Of a stretch of 18,204 bases of DNA, positions 10,940 to 18,204 are shown piece after piece. Location: IMG/VR virus record IMGVR_UViG_2547132272_000012; one strand, 5' to 3'. This DNA comes from a virus. Taxonomy: Duplodnaviria; Heunggongvirae; Uroviricota; Caudoviricetes. Made by a program: the position numbers and the translations under genes. Position 1 is the first letter of the stretch. Every line of letters begins with the position of its first letter. The notes under the pieces are model-generated. The model ran no database searches. It was given only the letters and a program-made list of their open reading frames with translations, and was not told where the DNA came from.

Positions 10940-13030
10940 TTATTGTTTTTTCACTTTGACCATGCCACGCCAGTCAAGCGGTGCCACTCCGGCATCAATG
11001 CGCACCTTGAATGCTGCACCATCAACCGTAAAGCCCTGTTGCTGCTCCAGATACGGCGTATCAATACCGTCGAGGTAAGCCACTTCAATCGTGTCACGCC
11101 CCTGCGCTGCCACCAGGTAATAATCCGTCGGGCTGCTGTCATCAAGGCGGGCCTCTGACAGAACCGTGGCAAAATTCTGAATCGGGTTAATAATGCCGCT
11201 GTTCGCATCTGCACCGGGCACGCTGGCAGACTTAATCAACTGATTGGCACGCGACTCAATGGCAACAGGCGTCAACATAAAAGCAGGACGAATGTTCAGG
11301 CGGCGGTCACCCGATTTCTGGAGCAGCATGGCTTTACGCCCGGAATCCAGCCCCTCAATAGACAAATCTGCAGTCACCAGGTTGCCATGATCTGCATGGA
11401 ACAGCGGTTTGCCATCCGACATTTTCGGATTGCTGGTCAGCACGGCCCAGACCAGATCACCCACGGTAGTCCGCGCTGCCGCCCCCATTGCCATCGGAAT
11501 ACGGGTCAGCATATCCAGGTCATCATTGATGATGGTCTGGCGATCAATGCTGAACAATTCGCCATAAGTCGCCAGTGCAATCGGTTCGCCACGATCTTTC
11601 AGGGTCACATATTTATATTCAGCCCCCGGCAATACTTTTCGTAGCGTCGGGAAAGTTTCCAGCCCGACACGATGCGCGGTTTTAAAATCAGTCAGCGTTC
11701 CCTTGCGGGTCCATTTGTCAAAATTTTCGCTGGCATCATCCCAGCCCTGCAACGCAGCTTTATGAGCCACATCCATCAGGATATTGCCGAAATCGCTGCT
11801 GCTGTGAGTAAATGCCAGCCCCACCATCGCCATCGGTGCGGAATGACCGGAGATACCGATACCGCGATCAACCAGCGAAGCACGCGCCAGCTCGCGCAGT
11901 GTAAAACCGTTATAAGCATTATCTTTTTCTGCTTCGGCATATCCGGCGCGTGCCATCACAGCCGCACGAATGGAATCGCCGACCAGATTACCGTTCCCGG
12001 CATGAATATGAACAGCGCCCGGGCCTGCACTTGGTGTCGTTCCGGCTGCCAGCGCCTGCAACAGTTTTTCACGGGCCTGTGCTTCCGTACAGGTCATGTC
12101 GTTCAGACACTCCGCTTTCAGTGCGGCATAAGACGGGAAAGAGGCAAAAACTGCGGTTACAGCCTGCACACGTTCCGCATTGGCTGCCATCAGTTGTTGC
12201 TGAACCTGCGAAGCAATTGCGCTGATATCCACATTTCCGGTTGATGGTGCCTGCTGAGCAGCGATCTGTTGCGCATTTTGCGGGGTTGCTTTCGGCTCCT
12301 GCGGCTGTCCGTTTGTCGTTTCTGCACGTGGAGCAAAAAGCGCGTTAATCTGTTCTGGCATATTATGGTAATCCTTCAGTTTATTTTGGTTCACACAGGC
12401 CGCAGCCTGTAATTCAGGTTCAAGCGTATCAGCGAAGCCTTTTTCCACGGCTTCAGCACCGTTCAGCCAGGTTTCTGCTTTCAGCATGGCTTCCAGCTCC
12501 TCCTGCCCGAGTCCGGTTTTATTCATGTAGGCTGACAGCATCAGCGCCTCGTTGCGATCCAGCCAGTCAGCATAATCACGCATATCATCGGAATCACCGG
12601 CGATCCCGCCCCACGGCTTGTGCACCATCAGCCAGGAATTTTCAGGCATATGCACTGTGGCGCCTGGCAGGCAGACAATCATGGAGGCCATGCTGGCTGC
12701 AACACCATCCACCCAGATATCCACCTTCGCTTTCAGCCGTGACAGCGTGTTAAAGATGGCAAACCCCTGCATCACATCACCGCCCGGGCTGTGGATATGC
12801 AGATCAATAGCGCTGGCCTCAAACACCCCCGCATCCTTACAGTCAGCAATAAACTGCTGCGCGGTGATGCCCCATCCGCCAATCACGTCATAGAGGTAAA
12901 TTTCCACCCGCCCGGCAGTCTGTGCACGGATTTCATACCAGCACTGACCATTAGCGGCATCCACCCCCGCAAGGCTGGCGCGGGGATTAATCATCGTCCC
13001 GCGAAGACGCGGGTTTATCATTTGCTGCAT
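10940..13030 (-). CDS. Fused prohead protease (ClpP/S49-like) - scaffold - major capsid polyprotein
   Basis: 696-aa ORF. N-terminus (HIHSPGGDVMQGFAIFNTL...DIWVDGVAASMASMIVCLPG...HMPENSWLMVHKPWGG) looks like a ClpP/S49 serine protease fold; the middle is Ala/Gln-rich; the C-terminal ~300 aa is capsid-like. ATG 13030 has AAGGAG 9 nt upstream and overlaps the portal 3' end by 44 nt. Confidence 0.8.
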   Translation of the reverse strand: MQQMINPRLRGTMINPRASLAGVDAANGQCWYEIRAQTAGRVEIYLYDVIGGWGITAQQFIADCKDAGVFEASAIDLHIHSPGGDVMQGFAIFNTLSRLKAKVDIWVDGVAASMASMIVCLPGATVHMPENSWLMVHKPWGGIAGDSDDMRDYADWLDRNEALMLSAYMNKTGLGQEELEAMLKAETWLNGAEAVEKGFADTLEPELQAAACVNQNKLKDYHNMPEQINALFAPRAETTNGQPQEPKATPQNAQQIAAQQAPSTGNVDISAIASQVQQQLMAANAERVQAVTAVFASFPSYAALKAECLNDMTCTEAQAREKLLQALAAGTTPSAGPGAVHIHAGNGNLVGDSIRAAVMARAGYAEAEKDNAYNGFTLRELARASLVDRGIGISGHSAPMAMVGLAFTHSSSDFGNILMDVAHKAALQGWDDASENFDKWTRKGTLTDFKTAHRVGLETFPTLRKVLPGAEYKYVTLKDRGEPIALATYGELFSIDRQTIINDDLDMLTRIPMAMGAAARTTVGDLVWAVLTSNPKMSDGKPLFHADHGNLVTADLSIEGLDSGRKAMLLQKSGDRRLNIRPAFMLTPVAIESRANQLIKSASVPGADANSGIINPIQNFATVLSEARLDDSSPTDYYLVAAQGRDTIEVAYLDGIDTPYLEQQQGFTVDGAAFKVRIDAGVAPLDWRGMVKVKKQ

Positions 13031-14498
13031 CAGGGATCACTCCTTTATCGTTAGCGGCGTCAGAATCGAACACCAGCCCGTTTTCCCGGTTAAATTCAGT
13101 TTCACGCAGTCGCTGACGTTTGACCTCCTGCGGTGACTGCCCACGGGCACGTATCCACTCGGCCTCCGTCCCGGCACCACCGCGAAGAATGGCCCGCCAT
13201 GCTGCAGCCTCCTTCACCGGATCAATCCACGGCATCACCGGGCCAAGATAAGTGGCATTGAAAAGCGTGGACATATCCACATCAGGAGGAATTTCAAGAA
13301 AAGGTATCGCCTGCTCCAGCCATGCCCGGTACACCGGGCGGCTGTACTGACCGACAAACCACTGCTGTAAAACCCCGTAGCCTTCGTAACCTTCCACCAG
13401 CTCCTGACGCTGCGAACTGTAGGAGCCGTTATAGTCACGGGCAATACTGGAATAACTGCCACGGGTTCCGGCAGCCACAGCACGCAACTGCCCGTTCCGG
13501 AATTCATAAAGATGAACATTCGGACGATTCGACTCCACCATCCCCAGATCTTCACCGGGGGCCAGTTCGTCAAAAATCATGCCCGGCGAAATATCAAAGT
13601 ACCGGGGTTTTTGTTCTGTGGGTGTCCAGTCGTTATCCGTCGGAAAGCTGGCGGCATCACCACGCTTAATGTAGAAACCCAGCGCGGCAGCAATACGGGC
13701 AGCCACACGCTCTGATTCTTCATAATCTTTCAGATCAGCAATCCGGCGAATCACACCATGTAACAGGCTGACACCTCTCACCTGATGAAGCCGTTTCCGC
13801 ATCGCCAGATGAAGCATGTTGTCTGCGTGAACAGTTTTGAGATCGGCGCTGAATCCACGCATATTTGCAGGATGGTATTTATAAACCCGATACCCTACAG
13901 GCCGCCCCCAGTTGTTAAGAATAATGCCCTGGCGGACTTGCTGACCCGCGTTCGTGTTCAGACTGACCGGAACAAAATCTGCTTCGAGAAGTTCCAGTGA
14001 TAATGGCACCACAGTGGAATGATTCAGACCGGCGACAGGACCACGCACCAGTTGTACGAACATCTCGCCATCACGCAAAGCAGATCGCAATGCCATCCGT
14101 TCGGCCTCCGGGCGGGTGAACATCCCCGTGACCTCAGGGCGAACAGACCATTCAGACCACAATGCCGAGATCTGCTCTGCCAGCGATTCATGCAGGGTGC
14201 CATCGCTTCTCAGTGGTTGTGGTTCGACCTGGATCCCCTGCGCACCAATAACCCGCTCTTCCAGCTTATCCAGCAGACCAATCACGATATCGTGATCTTC
14301 ATCCAGCGCCCTGGCCTGCTCCCTTAACGAGGTACCGGCAGAAAAAACCGCTGTATCGGCAGAACGGCTCTCGCGCCGCGCCTTATTCAGGCGTGAAGGC
14401 TGCGCCGCCTCATAAGCTCTCAGCAGTATTTTGTTTCTGGCGCGCGAAACTGCCCACCCTGGCGCAATTGCGCCAAGTGCTTTATCAAAAAAACCCAT
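12987..14498 (-). CDS. Portal protein (lambda gpB family)
   Basis: 503-aa ORF directly after gpW-like and terL; ATG 14498 with GAGG 7 nt upstream; size and order match the lambda A-W-B arrangement. Confidence 0.8.
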   Translation of the reverse strand: MGFFDKALGAIAPGWAVSRARNKILLRAYEAAQPSRLNKARRESRSADTAVFSAGTSLREQARALDEDHDIVIGLLDKLEERVIGAQGIQVEPQPLRSDGTLHESLAEQISALWSEWSVRPEVTGMFTRPEAERMALRSALRDGEMFVQLVRGPVAGLNHSTVVPLSLELLEADFVPVSLNTNAGQQVRQGIILNNWGRPVGYRVYKYHPANMRGFSADLKTVHADNMLHLAMRKRLHQVRGVSLLHGVIRRIADLKDYEESERVAARIAAALGFYIKRGDAASFPTDNDWTPTEQKPRYFDISPGMIFDELAPGEDLGMVESNRPNVHLYEFRNGQLRAVAAGTRGSYSSIARDYNGSYSSQRQELVEGYEGYGVLQQWFVGQYSRPVYRAWLEQAIPFLEIPPDVDMSTLFNATYLGPVMPWIDPVKEAAAWRAILRGGAGTEAEWIRARGQSPQEVKRQRLRETEFNRENGLVFDSDAANDKGVIPDAANDKPASSRDDD

Positions 14499-14506
14499 AA
14501 AAAACC

Positions 14507-14731
14507 TCAGGAGAAACGGGCGAGTTTGTACGGTTTCCTTGTGGGCTGGCAGGCCGCCGCCCAGCGTTTTTCCCAGTATTCAAGCTCCCTGCGTAATGCA
14601 ACAGGATCATGGTTGGTGATCGCCCTGCCATTCACCCCGGTAAAAGACACACTTTTACCATCCAGGGAATCCCTGTATGCCTGTCGCACGATAACCAGCA
14701 TCTGGAAAATCTCATCTTTTTTCACAACCAT
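14507..14731 (-). CDS. Head-tail joining protein (lambda gpW-like)
   Basis: 74-aa ORF between terL and portal, exactly where lambda W sits; central DGKSVSFTGVNGRAIT resembles the lambda W core. Start ambiguous: ATG 14731 overlaps terL by 10 nt with zero-spacer GGAGG; ATG 14701 is the alternative. Confidence 0.5.
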   Translation of the reverse strand: MVVKKDEIFQMLVIVRQAYRDSLDGKSVSFTGVNGRAITNHDPVALRRELEYWEKRWAAACQPTRKPYKLARFS

Positions 14732-16839
14732 CCTCCGTTTCGGGGTAGTGATAACCAGTTTCCGGATAACGCTTCCGGCGACGCTGCTTTTTGCCGCTCA
14801 TCTCTTCCGACAACGTTTTTCTTGTCCACTGTGTCGGAAGAACGTCTGTCTGCCGAAGTCCCCGCGTCAGCATCCTGCCCTCTTGCCCACTGGGGAGGGT
14901 TGCTCCAGTCACGGATTTTTTCATAGCCACGCAGAATGGCGACGGCATGGGCATAGCAAAAAAGGTCAAACGCTTCGTTATTCCCTTTTCCCGGCTTGCG
15001 CCATTTCCCGTCAGCACCACGTTCCTCATAGGTCAACTCTTCATAAAACCACTCCCCTAGCCAGTCAGGAAAATGAATGTAGCCCGGTCCGGGCATTTCA
15101 CGTTGCAGGTTATTGCTTAGTTGATCTTTCAGCAGATCTGTCTGCAGGAGATATACCGGCACCTTCCCCTGAGCATCCGCACGGCGATCGCTTCGCCCGG
15201 TATTATCCGGGTGTGTGATGGTAATAATTTTCTGGCGTTTCGTGCTGTCTCCCTTTACCAGAAAAACCCGTCGCCCCAGTCCATCCTGACGACATTTTCG
15301 CCAGAATTTATAGGCGTTATCCGTCACCCCGTCCTCACCACCACTGTCCACCGCCATTGCCAGTACAGGCATTCTGCGGGCCGGATCGGACTGGAGCGGA
15401 TACGTTTTCTCCAGTACATCGGTGACCAGCAACTGCCAGTCTTCAGGGTAAGCTCCGGGATGCACAGGTAATGCTTCGCCATTTTCATCGCAACGCAATG
15501 ACTGTCGGATGTTATAACGGTCCACCAGCCAGCGTTCGCCGTCCTCGCCATAGCCAATAATCTGCACCACAAACCGTCGGTTCTTCCCGCCCTGCACGTC
15601 CACAGCCGCAATAAGAAAACGCACTTTCGGCGGTACCAGGCGCTTACCGTAATCCTCAGCCCGCTGCATCAGAACATCTGCACTGCGCAACTCCATGGCG
15701 GAACGAGGCAAATAAGGCAATCCCCAGTCGGTGTTAATCACCGCCTTCAGTGTTTCCTCACTGCCTGTGGCTTCATATTCCTGCTCAGCAGTCAGTAGTT
15801 TGTAAACCAGTTGCGCCCAGGTCTGATAGGCTGCAGCGGGGCCTTCCATCCAGAAGCTGGCTATCCTTGAATGACGTGGCGTTCCGGTAACATTCCCTTC
15901 TCTGTCAATCTGCTCACCTTCACGCAACCAGACGCCGCGACCATTCAGTTCACGTTTCATGTCTGCGGTGATTCGGTTGCCACAATGAGGGCATAATATA
16001 TGAGCCGCTTCACTGGCTTTTACAGGATCAGGATTGTCACGATACCCCGTCATAGCCTCCATCGATGGCTGGAAATAATCACCGCAATCCGGACAAGGCC
16101 AGTACCAGCGACGACGATCGCCACGGTTATACAGAGAAAGGATCCCCGTGGTGGGCGGGGCTTCATGCGGTGACGTTCTGCGCCATTTGCTGTTTGTGAT
16201 TTCACGCCCGGGAGAACTCTCCACCAGCGTCATACCAGCTGACATAAATGTGGTGGTACGTTTTGAAGCCAGGGAGAAACCATCACCTTCGCCATCGATA
16301 TCTTCAGGAAATCGGTCGTAATCAGTCAGCGCCACACATTTAAAATCAGAGGATGACATGACATTGATGGAGGGCCAGCCGATTTTCAGAAAGCTGCCTG
16401 ACAGAAAATATTTGTCATGAACGTTGTTATCGTTGCGGCGTGGACTGAGGCGTTTTCTGACCTCCGGACTGCAACGAAATGTTCTTGCCAGGCGCTTTTT
16501 GGAGTGCTCCTGCGCCTTATCCTGCGTCATCTGCACCAGCAAAAAGTCTGACGGATCGCAAACAATGTTATAAACCACCCAGCCATCAATCAGGCCGTTA
16601 GTCTTGCCCGTACGGGCAGGGCCAACAAAAACAACCGCATCAAACTCACGGGACGACAGGCAGTTCATGGGTTCAATCACATACGGTGCAACCAGCGGAT
16701 CCCACGGAACAGAGTTGCCACCAGATGTAGGGACTCGCATAAATTTTTGTACCGCTTCGGCAACAGGCATCCTGCGCGGCGCTTTAATTAACTGGCCCGT
16801 ATCCAGTTTCAACGATCTGGCGGTCGCCTGCACAGGCAT
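14722..16839 (-). CDS. Terminase large subunit (lambda gpA family)
   Basis: 705-aa ORF with ATPase P-loop-like VGPARTGKT, an acidic block TDYDRFPEDIDGEGDG resembling lambda YDELAAFDDDIEQEG, and a Cys/His cluster WPCPDCG...CPHCG; ATGA overlap with terS. Confidence 0.9.
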   Translation of the reverse strand: MPVQATARSLKLDTGQLIKAPRRMPVAEAVQKFMRVPTSGGNSVPWDPLVAPYVIEPMNCLSSREFDAVVFVGPARTGKTNGLIDGWVVYNIVCDPSDFLLVQMTQDKAQEHSKKRLARTFRCSPEVRKRLSPRRNDNNVHDKYFLSGSFLKIGWPSINVMSSSDFKCVALTDYDRFPEDIDGEGDGFSLASKRTTTFMSAGMTLVESSPGREITNSKWRRTSPHEAPPTTGILSLYNRGDRRRWYWPCPDCGDYFQPSMEAMTGYRDNPDPVKASEAAHILCPHCGNRITADMKRELNGRGVWLREGEQIDREGNVTGTPRHSRIASFWMEGPAAAYQTWAQLVYKLLTAEQEYEATGSEETLKAVINTDWGLPYLPRSAMELRSADVLMQRAEDYGKRLVPPKVRFLIAAVDVQGGKNRRFVVQIIGYGEDGERWLVDRYNIRQSLRCDENGEALPVHPGAYPEDWQLLVTDVLEKTYPLQSDPARRMPVLAMAVDSGGEDGVTDNAYKFWRKCRQDGLGRRVFLVKGDSTKRQKIITITHPDNTGRSDRRADAQGKVPVYLLQTDLLKDQLSNNLQREMPGPGYIHFPDWLGEWFYEELTYEERGADGKWRKPGKGNNEAFDLFCYAHAVAILRGYEKIRDWSNPPQWARGQDADAGTSADRRSSDTVDKKNVVGRDERQKAASPEALSGNWLSLPRNGGWL

Positions 16840-17339
16840 TATTCGTCCTCCTGATTTTCCTCCTCTGTATCTTCCTGTTTGCTGTCATCTGCCACCCGCC
16901 GCGCAATTTCGTCACGCAAATCATCAATAATGCTTTGCACCCGCATGACAGCCGAAGGCTCGAGAGCGCAATCGCGTTCAAGAATATCGGGGAGAGTTTC
17001 CAGAACCTGCACCATAGCCTTTGCCATTTCAGCAAATTCACGGGCGACATCAGACGCAGGGATCAGTTCTCCGACCTCCTGTTCAAATTTCAGACGTTCC
17101 CGTTCTGACTGATACCAGGCTTTTCGGTCATGGGGATCCATTTCCCCTTCAGCGACAGGCGGTGGCAACTTCATTAGCTCTGCCAGAATATCAGTAAGTT
17201 TATACAGCTTGAGGTTACTCTCATGCCCACCCGCTGTTCGGACATTTTTGATTCTTGATGCGACAGTCTGTCGGTGCACACCCGACAGCGCAGCTAACTG
17301 GCTGACATTAAGAACAAGGTGTTTCAATTCCTTATCCAC
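16839..17339 (-). CDS. Terminase small subunit (Nu1-like, N-terminal HTH)
   Basis: 166-aa ORF directly upstream of and overlapping terL; N-terminal helix-turn-helix-like VSQLAALSGVHRQTVASRI and acidic C-terminus; GTG start 17339 with GGAGG 5 nt upstream. Confidence 0.7.
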   Translation of the reverse strand: MDKELKHLVLNVSQLAALSGVHRQTVASRIKNVRTAGGHESNLKLYKLTDILAELMKLPPPVAEGEMDPHDRKAWYQSERERLKFEQEVGELIPASDVAREFAEMAKAMVQVLETLPDILERDCALEPSAVMRVQSIIDDLRDEIARRVADDSKQEDTEEENQEDE

Positions 17340-17350
17340 TTACCCCTCCA

Positions 17351-17433
17351 GTGATGAACAAAAAACAAACATTTTCGACACCAGCTATTTTTTAACCTTT
17401 CATTATCAATAAATTACAGTGGTGGTGATGAAC
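17351..17433 (-). promoter_or_regulatory. cosB-like element: two GTGATGAAC direct repeats flanking an IHF-consensus site
   Basis: GTGATGAAC occurs at 17351-17359 and 17425-17433; between them, TATCAATAAATTA (17404-17416) matches the IHF consensus WATCAANNNNTTR. The layout resembles lambda cosB just upstream of Nu1. Confidence 0.4.
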
Positions 17434-17591
17434 GATGAAAATGCAAAAATTTGGCGATTTCTGCGCATCCGTATCCCCTCGGTGTTCTAAATTCCAGGAA
17501 GGACCCGTGAAAATGGGAGCAATTATCATTTGCATACACTCCAACACCTACATTATCGCAGCCCCTCGCTGAAGAGCTGCTGTAATGCCTG

Positions 17592-17990
17592 TTACTCACG
17601 AATCAGGCGAGCACTCTTACCATTCATTTCAATACGCGAATACTGCGGTTTACCATCAATGATGTCTGTCATCACGAACATCTCACCCGGCTGCAGTTCA
17701 ACTACTGCGCCTTCCGGCAATTCCATGCAGGCAAATACCGGACAGCCCGGATAACGACCATCTTCTGTTGCTTCCAGCATTGACTCACCAAACCACTCCG
17801 TCATGGCGCGACCATCAGCTGCTTTGTAGTGGATCAAGTACTGGTTTTCACTACCTGCATACTGAGCACGCCCCCTCACTTCCCCCCATTCATCACTGAT
17901 ACGTACCTCCACCAGTTGTGACAACTCAAACTTAAACGGAACAGCAGCGGTACCAATTACAATCGGTTTGCTTTCTGTTTTTTTCATCAT
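17592..17990 (-). CDS. Hypothetical protein (unknown function) upstream of terminase
   Basis: 132-aa ORF MMKKTESKPIVIGTAAVPFKFELSQLVEVRISDEWGEVRGRAQYAGSENQYLIHYKAADGRAMTEWFGESML...; AGGAG 3-6 nt before tandem ATGs; no transmembrane segment or signal peptide evident; no family confidently recognised. Confidence 0.55.
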   Translation of the reverse strand: MMKKTESKPIVIGTAAVPFKFELSQLVEVRISDEWGEVRGRAQYAGSENQYLIHYKAADGRAMTEWFGESMLEATEDGRYPGCPVFACMELPEGAVVELQPGEMFVMTDIIDGKPQYSRIEMNGKSARLIRE

Positions 17991-18204
17991 CGTCTCCTGA
18001 TATCAAAGCCCGTCGCCGCAGCGGGCACTGATCAACATTTGAGTATTCGCGGCGACAGAAAGAATTTATTTTATTGAGTAGCCACAAACACAGAATTTCA
18101 TGCTTTCCGGACGCTGGCGCCCCCCTTCATTTTTCAGCAAAATATTCTGCTCTTACAGGCGATCAGTTCTGCAGACACTGCCGGACACCGTCGACAATTT
18201 CACA

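Follow-up and report, generated by a model that had tools for sequence, protein, structure and literature searches.

A conserved late gene beside a lambda-type cos site in an Escherichia coli prophage encodes a predicted SH3-like barrel that is probably a remote relative of HspQ/YccV

Introduction

What does a small gene do that lies between the lysis and terminase genes of a prophage and has no assigned family? We followed up this question for one ORF in a DNA stretch of 18,204 nt (IMG/VR record IMGVR_UViG_2547132272_000012), called the window in the following; all positions refer to it. The window corresponds to the late region of an E. coli prophage that has a packaging module of the lambda/Gifsy type and a contractile tail. 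In E. coli P393-F10, a near-identical copy adjoins trpA/yciEFG.

The protein has been listed before, by PHROGs in a family of unknown function and by GenBank as a 'hypothetical protein'. Although widespread, its family lacks a name, a Pfam model and a proposed fold.

The ORF and its translation signals

The gene is defined by the following features:

17592–17990, minus strand: ORF of 132 aa (ORF list of the window)
17987, minus strand: putative alternative start, the second ATG of the adjacent in-frame pair at 17985–17990, giving a product of 131 aa
17994–17998, minus strand: Shine-Dalgarno sequence AGGAG, read from the sequence and also kept in relatives

The first-pass annotation had described a 132-aa ORF directly upstream of the terminase genes without naming its strand, and had noted a strong ribosome-binding site. 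Both are present, on the minus strand. AGGAG is spaced 3 nt from the first ATG and 6 nt from the second (ATGATG), and most annotated homologues have 130–131 aa, counted from the second ATG. Because of this spacing and these annotations, the second ATG (17987) is favoured and may be the true start.

The 132-aa protein is acidic (predicted pI of 4.92). Its highest Kyte-Doolittle mean over 19 residues was 1.18, and neither a transmembrane segment nor a lipobox or signal peptide was found in it, in line with the earlier remark that it has no lysis-protein features. Scans of the ORF with Pfam (down to E ≤ 1) and NCBIfam gave zero matches, HNH included. Hence, the ORF is indeed not an HNH endonuclease, and in phiP27 and its relatives, HNH is encoded by a separate gene downstream of the family member. 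The PADLOC-DB defence HMMs also gave zero matches for the ORF and four relatives.

Family membership and selection

The ORF product matched phrog_1935 with E = 9e-66 (model positions 1–116 of 116) and phrog_8618 with E = 4e-24 (model positions 2–59 of 61). Close homologues were found in Enterobacterales prophages (100), and a profile search yielded 643 cluster representatives at 50% identity (E ≤ 1e-3). In pairwise comparisons of 14 distinct full-length alleles, dN/dS was 0.135 for residues 1–97 and 0.38 for residues 98–132, i.e. the constraint on the latter is weaker. The phrog_1935 match, the close homologues, the 643 representatives and the low dN/dS of the core together mean that the ORF did not arise by chance. 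E. coli prophages carry it as a genuine, conserved late gene, the core of which is under purifying selection. Conservation and synteny, named earlier as a check, were thus found: the family is conserved, and the genomic slot is kept in the Enterobacterales subfamily. In the searches, none of the known families of lysis or packaging accessories was matched with confidence.

Not all copies are intact. Premature stops were present in 11 of the 80 related viral loci (L033–L039, L041, L042, L079 and L080), every one at or after residue 92 (residue 116 or 92). As the stops occur only there and leave the core intact, the C-terminal extension looks dispensable. The annotated copies in the chromosomes of E. 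coli STEC383 and P393-F10 are marked as a frameshifted and a truncated pseudogene.

Distant family members are mostly stand-alone proteins of 56–100 aa. Some members contain tandem double copies of the domain, and in others the domain is fused to repeated modules (phrog_16354, phrog_23578) or, in two proteins, to a borderline Lcl_C-like domain. Unusual architectures occur in P0101, P0105 and P0364, in P0163 and P0170, and in P0210 and P0237. Apart from the borderline Lcl_C in two of them, PHROGs and Pfam scans of the fusion proteins revealed only modules of unknown function. A Pfam scan of 120 family members (E ≤ 10) showed no recurrent family.

Architecture and predicted fold

Three parts can be distinguished in the protein:

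17766–17942, minus strand: core domain, residues 17–75, predicted SH3-like five/six-stranded beta-barrel, HspQ/YccV-like
17700–17765, minus strand: conserved Enterobacterales tail, residues 76–97, EDxRHPGCPVFAxxxLPEGAVV, from the alignment; it aligns with DEHPEQP of HspQ
17595–17699, minus strand: optional C-terminal extension, residues 98–132, three predicted beta-strands, pLDDT ~70

The core shared by the whole family comprises ~57 residues (17–73 of the ORF product) with the consensus FKFxLxQxVxIxxSGExGxVxGRAEYxxxxNxYLxxYKAADGRAxExWWxESxL. Ten residues (F19, V27, S32, E34, G36, R41, Y51, Y55, G60 and W66) are each kept in at least 90% of the family. The net charge was negative in 83% of 120 family core domains. 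The extension matches phrog_8025 and is missing from a 97-aa form, which is found in phiP27 (L33) and many others. Accordingly, DNA identity with phiP27 begins at window position 17700, which is codon 97.

AlphaFold2 (AF2) reached a pLDDT of 44.8 with a shallow alignment of 37 sequences. With 120 diverse family members, the pLDDT was 86.5, with values of 94–98 over residues 20–80. The model consists of five strands, with a short helical turn ahead of the last one, and of a C-terminal sheet of three strands that is predicted with less confidence. The short 3-10 helix between the last two strands of an SH3-like barrel is present in it. On this model, the core of the ORF product is an all-beta SH3-like barrel. 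The small beta-rich fold and the WF motif, noted earlier as a weak impression, are therefore borne out, as the model is all-beta and W66 belongs to the residues kept throughout most of the family.

HspQ (PDB 5ycq) was the best structural match by two methods, so that the structure prediction suggested earlier as a check gave both a confident core model and a best fold match. A fold search against BFVD matched only uncharacterised small phage proteins. Sequence searches of the PDB with two profiles returned chance matches only (E > 0.2).

Relationship to HspQ and YccV

The family profile was compared with HspQ using hhalign. The HspQ query is identical in sequence to chain 5ycq_A and scores 74 bits against Pfam YccV-like. 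The results were as follows:

Family profile against HspQ alone: score 26.2, probability 33%, E = 4.6e-4
Family profile against the 26-sequence HspQ profile: score 32.6 (31.9 in a re-run), probability 70%, E = 4e-5, 73 columns
Core only (residues 15–75) against the HspQ profile: score 24.3, probability 44%, E = 2.4e-4
89 distant members only against the HspQ profile: score 24.2, probability 40%, E = 3e-4
Against 100 column-shuffled HspQ profiles: score 10.8 ± 2.1 (maximum of 16.1)
Against the reversed HspQ profile: score 10.0
Against five other SH3-like proteins: score 8.8–12.7

The score with the HspQ profile was ~10 SD above the column-shuffled controls. The signal was retained when the core or the distant members were used by themselves, and the five other SH3-like proteins gave none. 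The probability of 70% lies under the usual standard of 90–95%, and it is suggestive rather than proof because the HspQ profile is shallow (≥78% identity). The alignment of 73 columns covers the entire barrel and the subsequent (E/D)xHP motif and stops at HspQ residue 88.

The two proteins have several landmarks in common. HspQ/YccV and the phage model agree in the order of their strands and in a short helical turn ahead of the last one, and the published description of YccV (PMC7647994) matches the AF2 model in both respects. HspQ/YccV is small, acidic and stand-alone, as is the phage protein. Both HspQ and the phage family start with F-x-(L/I)-x-Q-x-V, carry Y-x-(I/V) in the third strand and end with E-x-x-L, and the (E/D)-x-H-P motif follows the barrel in HspQ and in the phage protein alike.

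There are also clear differences. HspQ has an insertion of ~15 residues between strands 2 and 3 that is missing from the phage protein. Its C-terminal tail, which activates and binds Lon, and its acetylation site K96 have no counterpart; the C-terminus of the phage proteins is unrelated to the HspQ tail or is absent. Conversely, the polar residues S32, E34 and R41 are conserved in the phage family and are not found in HspQ. Finally, HspQ is encoded by a heat-shock gene of the host, whereas the ORF is a phage gene that is presumably expressed late.

PF08755 did not match the ORF even at E ≤ 1, and it did not appear in the list of the families that the 120 members matched most often (E ≤ 10). 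Considering profile and model together, the ORF product is HspQ/YccV-like in its predicted fold and probably a remote homologue, while membership of PF08755 is not demonstrated. Such membership is not claimed, because there was no Pfam match, the insertion between strands 2 and 3 is missing and the HspQ tail is absent.

Within phrog_1935/phrog_8618, the ORF is a direct member, together with L33 of phiP27 (NP_543085). The DNA of phiP27 is 91.5% identical to the window over the core and the upstream region. The copy in the window has the C-terminal extension of 35 residues, and phiP27 L33 lacks it.

Genomic slot and the cos site

The genes downstream of the ORF belong to the packaging module:

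16839–17339, minus strand: terS, DUF1441, phrog_141 (Pfam and PHROGs)
14722–16839, minus strand: terL, gpA-type with GpA_ATPase and GpA_nuclease (Pfam)

In the Enterobacterales subfamily, the gene always lay between the lysis cassette and a packaging module that followed it directly (80 IMG/VR loci, plus contigs found by exact protein match). The modules behind it belong to at least five types: lambda Nu1 with gpA; DUF1441 with gpA; HNH with P27-type terS/terL; a gene with a ParB-like nuclease domain and, behind it, another terminase; and a fifth type. The lysis cassettes ahead of it vary as well, with endolysins of either the M15 peptidase or the GH108 type. Phage cdtI shares its terminase type with the window and carries an unrelated gene (orf60) in the slot. 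We had considered orf60 as a homologue of the ORF and rejected it; the slot is the same and the sequence is unrelated. The variety of packaging modules and lysis cassettes and the replacement in cdtI bear out the original description of an accessory gene, neither lysis nor HNH, in a variable slot between lysis and packaging.

The contexts of distant members (58–103 aa) are more varied. In Stenotrophomonas phages (L086–L090), they are directly upstream of a ParB_N protein of ~650 aa. Others are located in replication/recombination regions, near cI/cro or near ssDNA-binding and nuclease genes, and P0370 lies inside a structural module upstream of the tape-measure gene. These contexts suggest that the domain is general-purpose and has a fixed slot only in the Enterobacterales subfamily, and that its function may differ across the family.

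ParB_N or ParB-like nuclease-domain genes recur just downstream of the 58-aa members and of the Enterobacterales loci L045, L046, L059, L063, L067 and L069. This adjacency may be a functional link or mere proximity to packaging genes.

The stretch between the ORF and terS had been described as 250 bp of non-coding DNA. It does not code for protein (252 bp), but it is not empty. The following features were located in it by comparison with the ends of lambda, phage cdtI and related loci:

17340–17550, minus strand: lambda-type cos region, from alignment to these ends
17500–17506: cosQ-like GGGTCCT, matching lambda cosQ in sequence and spacing
~17467–17479 (± 2 nt): cohesive-end 12-mer of cosN, inferred from the alignment
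17404–17416: IHF consensus TATCAATAAATTA, read on the plus strand, at the position of cosB

Both the cohesive end of lambda, GGGCGGCGACCT, and the start of the cdtI record, GGGCGGGAGCGT, align with the cosN 12-mer (AGGGGATACGGA/T). In lambda-like phages such as Gifsy-1, cosQ is strongly conserved and positions 7–12 of the cohesive end are variable (PMC4669245). The cos region is also kept upstream of the DUF1441-type terS in L062, L064, L078, L097 and cdtI. Judged by these alignments, the 252-bp 'spacer' is a lambda-type cos site, the exact nick positions of which we infer. The ORF is ~45 bp upstream of cosQ. In the packaged chromosome, the ORF is the last gene of the right arm, since the spacer is cos. 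An Rfam scan of 16800–18204 gave zero matches.

The slot at the right chromosome end, before cos, is also that of lambda bor and of other cargo between Rz and cos. Lambda bor encodes a lipoprotein, lies on the opposite strand, has its own promoter and is expressed in lysogens. In contrast, the ORF product is predicted to be cytoplasmic, and the gene runs in the direction of the late operon and lacks a detectable promoter.

Two neighbouring reading frames were observed in addition. Comparison with L002 revealed a conserved 51-aa hypothetical gene (WP_187168058) at 18161–18204 on the minus strand that is cut by the window end. It starts beyond that end and finishes ~170 nt upstream of the ORF, and its equivalent in phiP27 is L32. 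Further downstream, a 696-aa ORF (10940–13030, minus strand) overlaps the end of the portal gene (12987–14498); the RefSeq annotation of its match is a fusion of a ClpP-like prohead protease and a major capsid protein.

Expression

The leader of the gene had been called structured, and semi-independent expression as a moron had been suggested. One structure is visible in the leader:

18003–18033, minus strand: weak hairpin just upstream of the ribosome-binding site, with a GC stem (18008–18012 / 18022–18026) followed by UUUGAUAU

The 131-nt leader folded with z = -0.97 relative to shuffled sequences and the local hairpin with z = -0.5. The leader is thus no more stable than shuffled sequences, and it can hardly be called structured.

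At the matching place, relatives with two unrelated upstream sequences have a canonical intrinsic terminator (L026, 5963–5982; L045, 5962–5983). Its GC-rich stem of 8–9 bp is accompanied by a T-run (z = -3.0 and -3.3), and 6–10 nt separate its end from the Shine-Dalgarno sequence. As the terminator abuts the Shine-Dalgarno sequence, relatives of this type have no room for an own promoter. A consensus scan found no sigma-70-like promoter in 16800–18204 or in L026.

The ORF has the orientation of the lysis and terminase genes and thus of the late operon. RNA polymerase modified by Q passes terminators in the late operons of lambdoid phages and transcribes from pR' across cos into the head genes. 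As far as can be judged from the sequence, the ORF is most likely transcribed only by such antiterminated late transcription. The lack of a promoter and the terminator abutting the ribosome-binding site in relatives argue for late read-through expression and against an autonomous moron. The suggestion of semi-independent expression is also at odds with the late-operon orientation, and the 250-bp gap cited in its favour is the cos site.

The hairpin behind the gene

A second structure was found on the other side of the gene:

17551–17587, minus strand: conserved stem-loop of ~15–17 bp, -22 kcal/mol, without a U-tract, beginning 4 nt past the stop codon

This hairpin was far more stable than expected (z = -5.2), and none of 200 shuffled sequences folded as well. 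It directly followed the stop codon in most fetched loci, with all types of packaging module. The 19 distinct variants showed covariation: 89.5% of the cells were paired, compared with 36–54% when the partners were slid, five pairs had changed on both sides and none of 500 shuffles reached the covariation score. The terminator scan did not call the hairpin, which has no U-tract.

Megablast matches in many E. coli genomes begin exactly at 17550. This break in homology suggests that the hairpin marks a module or recombination boundary between the lysis side and the packaging side. The hairpin also follows the unrelated orf60 of phage cdtI. As it is present in cdtI, it was considered as a part of cos, and this was rejected because it follows the gene before every packaging type. 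The hairpin may stabilise the 3' end of the RNA, serve as a processing site, act as a weak terminator or be a junction for recombination.

Proposed function and alternative explanations

The best overall explanation, tentative as it is, is an HspQ-like barrel that binds a component of the host AAA+ proteolysis machinery late in infection. A small, soluble, acidic protein with a minimal YccV/HspQ-type barrel would be made from the late transcript on the lysis side. It would act by protein–protein binding, neither as an enzyme nor as a DNA binder. The barrel would serve as a docking unit in the manner of PDIP38 and would dock onto Lon, ClpS/ClpAP or ClpX. The outcome would be an altered set of proteins degraded late in infection.

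This proposal is derived from the YccV-like precedents, from an acidic protein that is free of enzyme motifs and membrane segments, from the likely late expression and from the independence of any one terminase or lysis system. The characterised YccV-like domains all modulate AAA+ proteolysis (PMC6719616, PMC7647994). HspQ is both a substrate and an activator of Lon, and acetylated HspQ inhibits ClpS (PMC6719616). In PDIP38, the YccV-like barrel docks on the CLPX zinc-binding domain, and ClpF of plants acts with ClpS1/ClpC (PMC7647994). PDIP38/POLDIP2 and ClpF thus use the same barrel as a docking module for components of AAA+ proteases, which shows that the barrel by itself can be a binding unit. 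They are, however, eukaryotic multidomain proteins with DUF525 or a UVR motif and large insertions. Among the family fusion proteins that were scanned, no fusion of the phage domain to partners of the DUF525 or UVR type was seen. For the phage protein, the mode of action of the HspQ tail is excluded because the tail is absent.

T4 PinA and T7 Gp4.5 act on Lon. Together with lambda CIII, they are a precedent for small phage proteins that target Lon or FtsH (PMC10286901, PMC1838920). The analogy is functional only, as these proteins have no relation in sequence or fold to the ORF product and their genes are early.

A wider version of the proposal, which we regard as rather doubtful, is that phrog_1935/8618 might be a large unrecognised phage branch of the YccV/HspQ superfamily, with minimal barrels that would re-programme proteolysis by docking onto Lon, ClpS or the zinc-binding domain of ClpX. 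Late in infection, such barrels might for example block the degradation of phage proteins, or block toxin-antitoxin or abortive-infection defences that are triggered by proteases.

The link to HspQ/YccV leads to a concrete hypothesis, i.e. binding to Lon, ClpS or ClpX. If it is true, phages join the short list of organisms that steer regulated proteolysis via a YccV domain. The functional claim is put forward as a hypothesis, and otherwise the ORF is an ordinary small accessory phage gene. New here are the fold and the probable relationship to YccV/HspQ, as well as the limits of core, tail and optional extension, the identification of the spacer as cos and the conserved 3' hairpin. The local map is corrected accordingly: the spacer is the cos site, and the covarying hairpin is read as a recombination boundary between lysis-side and packaging modules.

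Among the alternatives, a nucleic-acid-binding accessory has to be weighed, either a Tudor/KOW/SH3-like protein or a binder of hemimethylated DNA. It would act near cos or on late RNA, for example by helping packaging termination or by shielding the chromosome end. YccV was first described as a hemimethylated-DNA binder. The position of the gene close to cosQ and directly ahead of the packaging module fits this role, a DNA methyltransferase is encoded upstream of the lysis genes in these prophages, and distant members adjoin ParB_N, ssDNA-binding and nuclease genes. However, the low pI and the net negative charge of most family cores point to a protein binder rather than a nucleic-acid binder. 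Moreover, the gene precedes at least five mechanistically different packaging systems, so it is not tied to one terminase or cos, and cdtI has the same terminase type without it. We therefore consider nucleic-acid binding unlikely.

It is similarly improbable that the gene is a moron, i.e. lysogenic-conversion or defence cargo that the prophage expresses to the advantage of its host, be it for superinfection exclusion, for anti-phage defence or as a fitness factor. The slot is a classical one for cargo, as for bor in lambda, and the gene is present in some related phages and absent in others. The strong conserved hairpin behind it could be a terminator, and the homology breaks exactly after this hairpin, as expected of a cassette. 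These points are countered by the absent promoter consensus, the late-operon orientation and the canonical terminator shortly before the Shine-Dalgarno sequence in relatives. The hairpin itself lacks a U-tract, and the terminator scan did not pick it up. Neither a PADLOC match nor a signal peptide, transmembrane segment or lipobox was detected, and the copies in two E. coli chromosomes are pseudogenes.

A virion, assembly or lysis accessory with an SH3-like fold (a minor structural, head-completion or lysis-timing protein) would agree with the position in the late operon and with P0370 in its structural module. Small SH3-like proteins are also known in phage necks and tails (e.g. 8qkh_S). But the gene lies outside the head and tail modules, and it is combined with varying head types (lambda-like, HK97/P27-like and others) and varying endolysin types. 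In addition, it is not universally present, and its product has no membrane features. This makes such a role quite unlikely.

A spurious or decaying ORF without function, as the broken copies in two E. coli chromosomes and the premature stops might suggest, is hardly credible given the low dN/dS of the core, stops that all spare it, 643 clusters and a confidently predicted fold, and for the core domain a non-functional ORF is effectively excluded.

Occurrence in other genomes

DNA resembling an 865-bp stretch spanning the gene was present in 264 of 5,426 complete E. coli genomes. A family member, L33, is also encoded by phiP27, an Stx2e phage. One match concerns a phage of another host: the Actinobacillus phage vB_Apl-pPE4 (PP818812.1, 20220–20583) contains pieces that are ~90% identical to the prophage DNA of the window, and a 50-nt stretch around the hairpin and the stop codon is 100% identical. 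This similarity is unexpectedly close, as the recorded host belongs to a different bacterial family.
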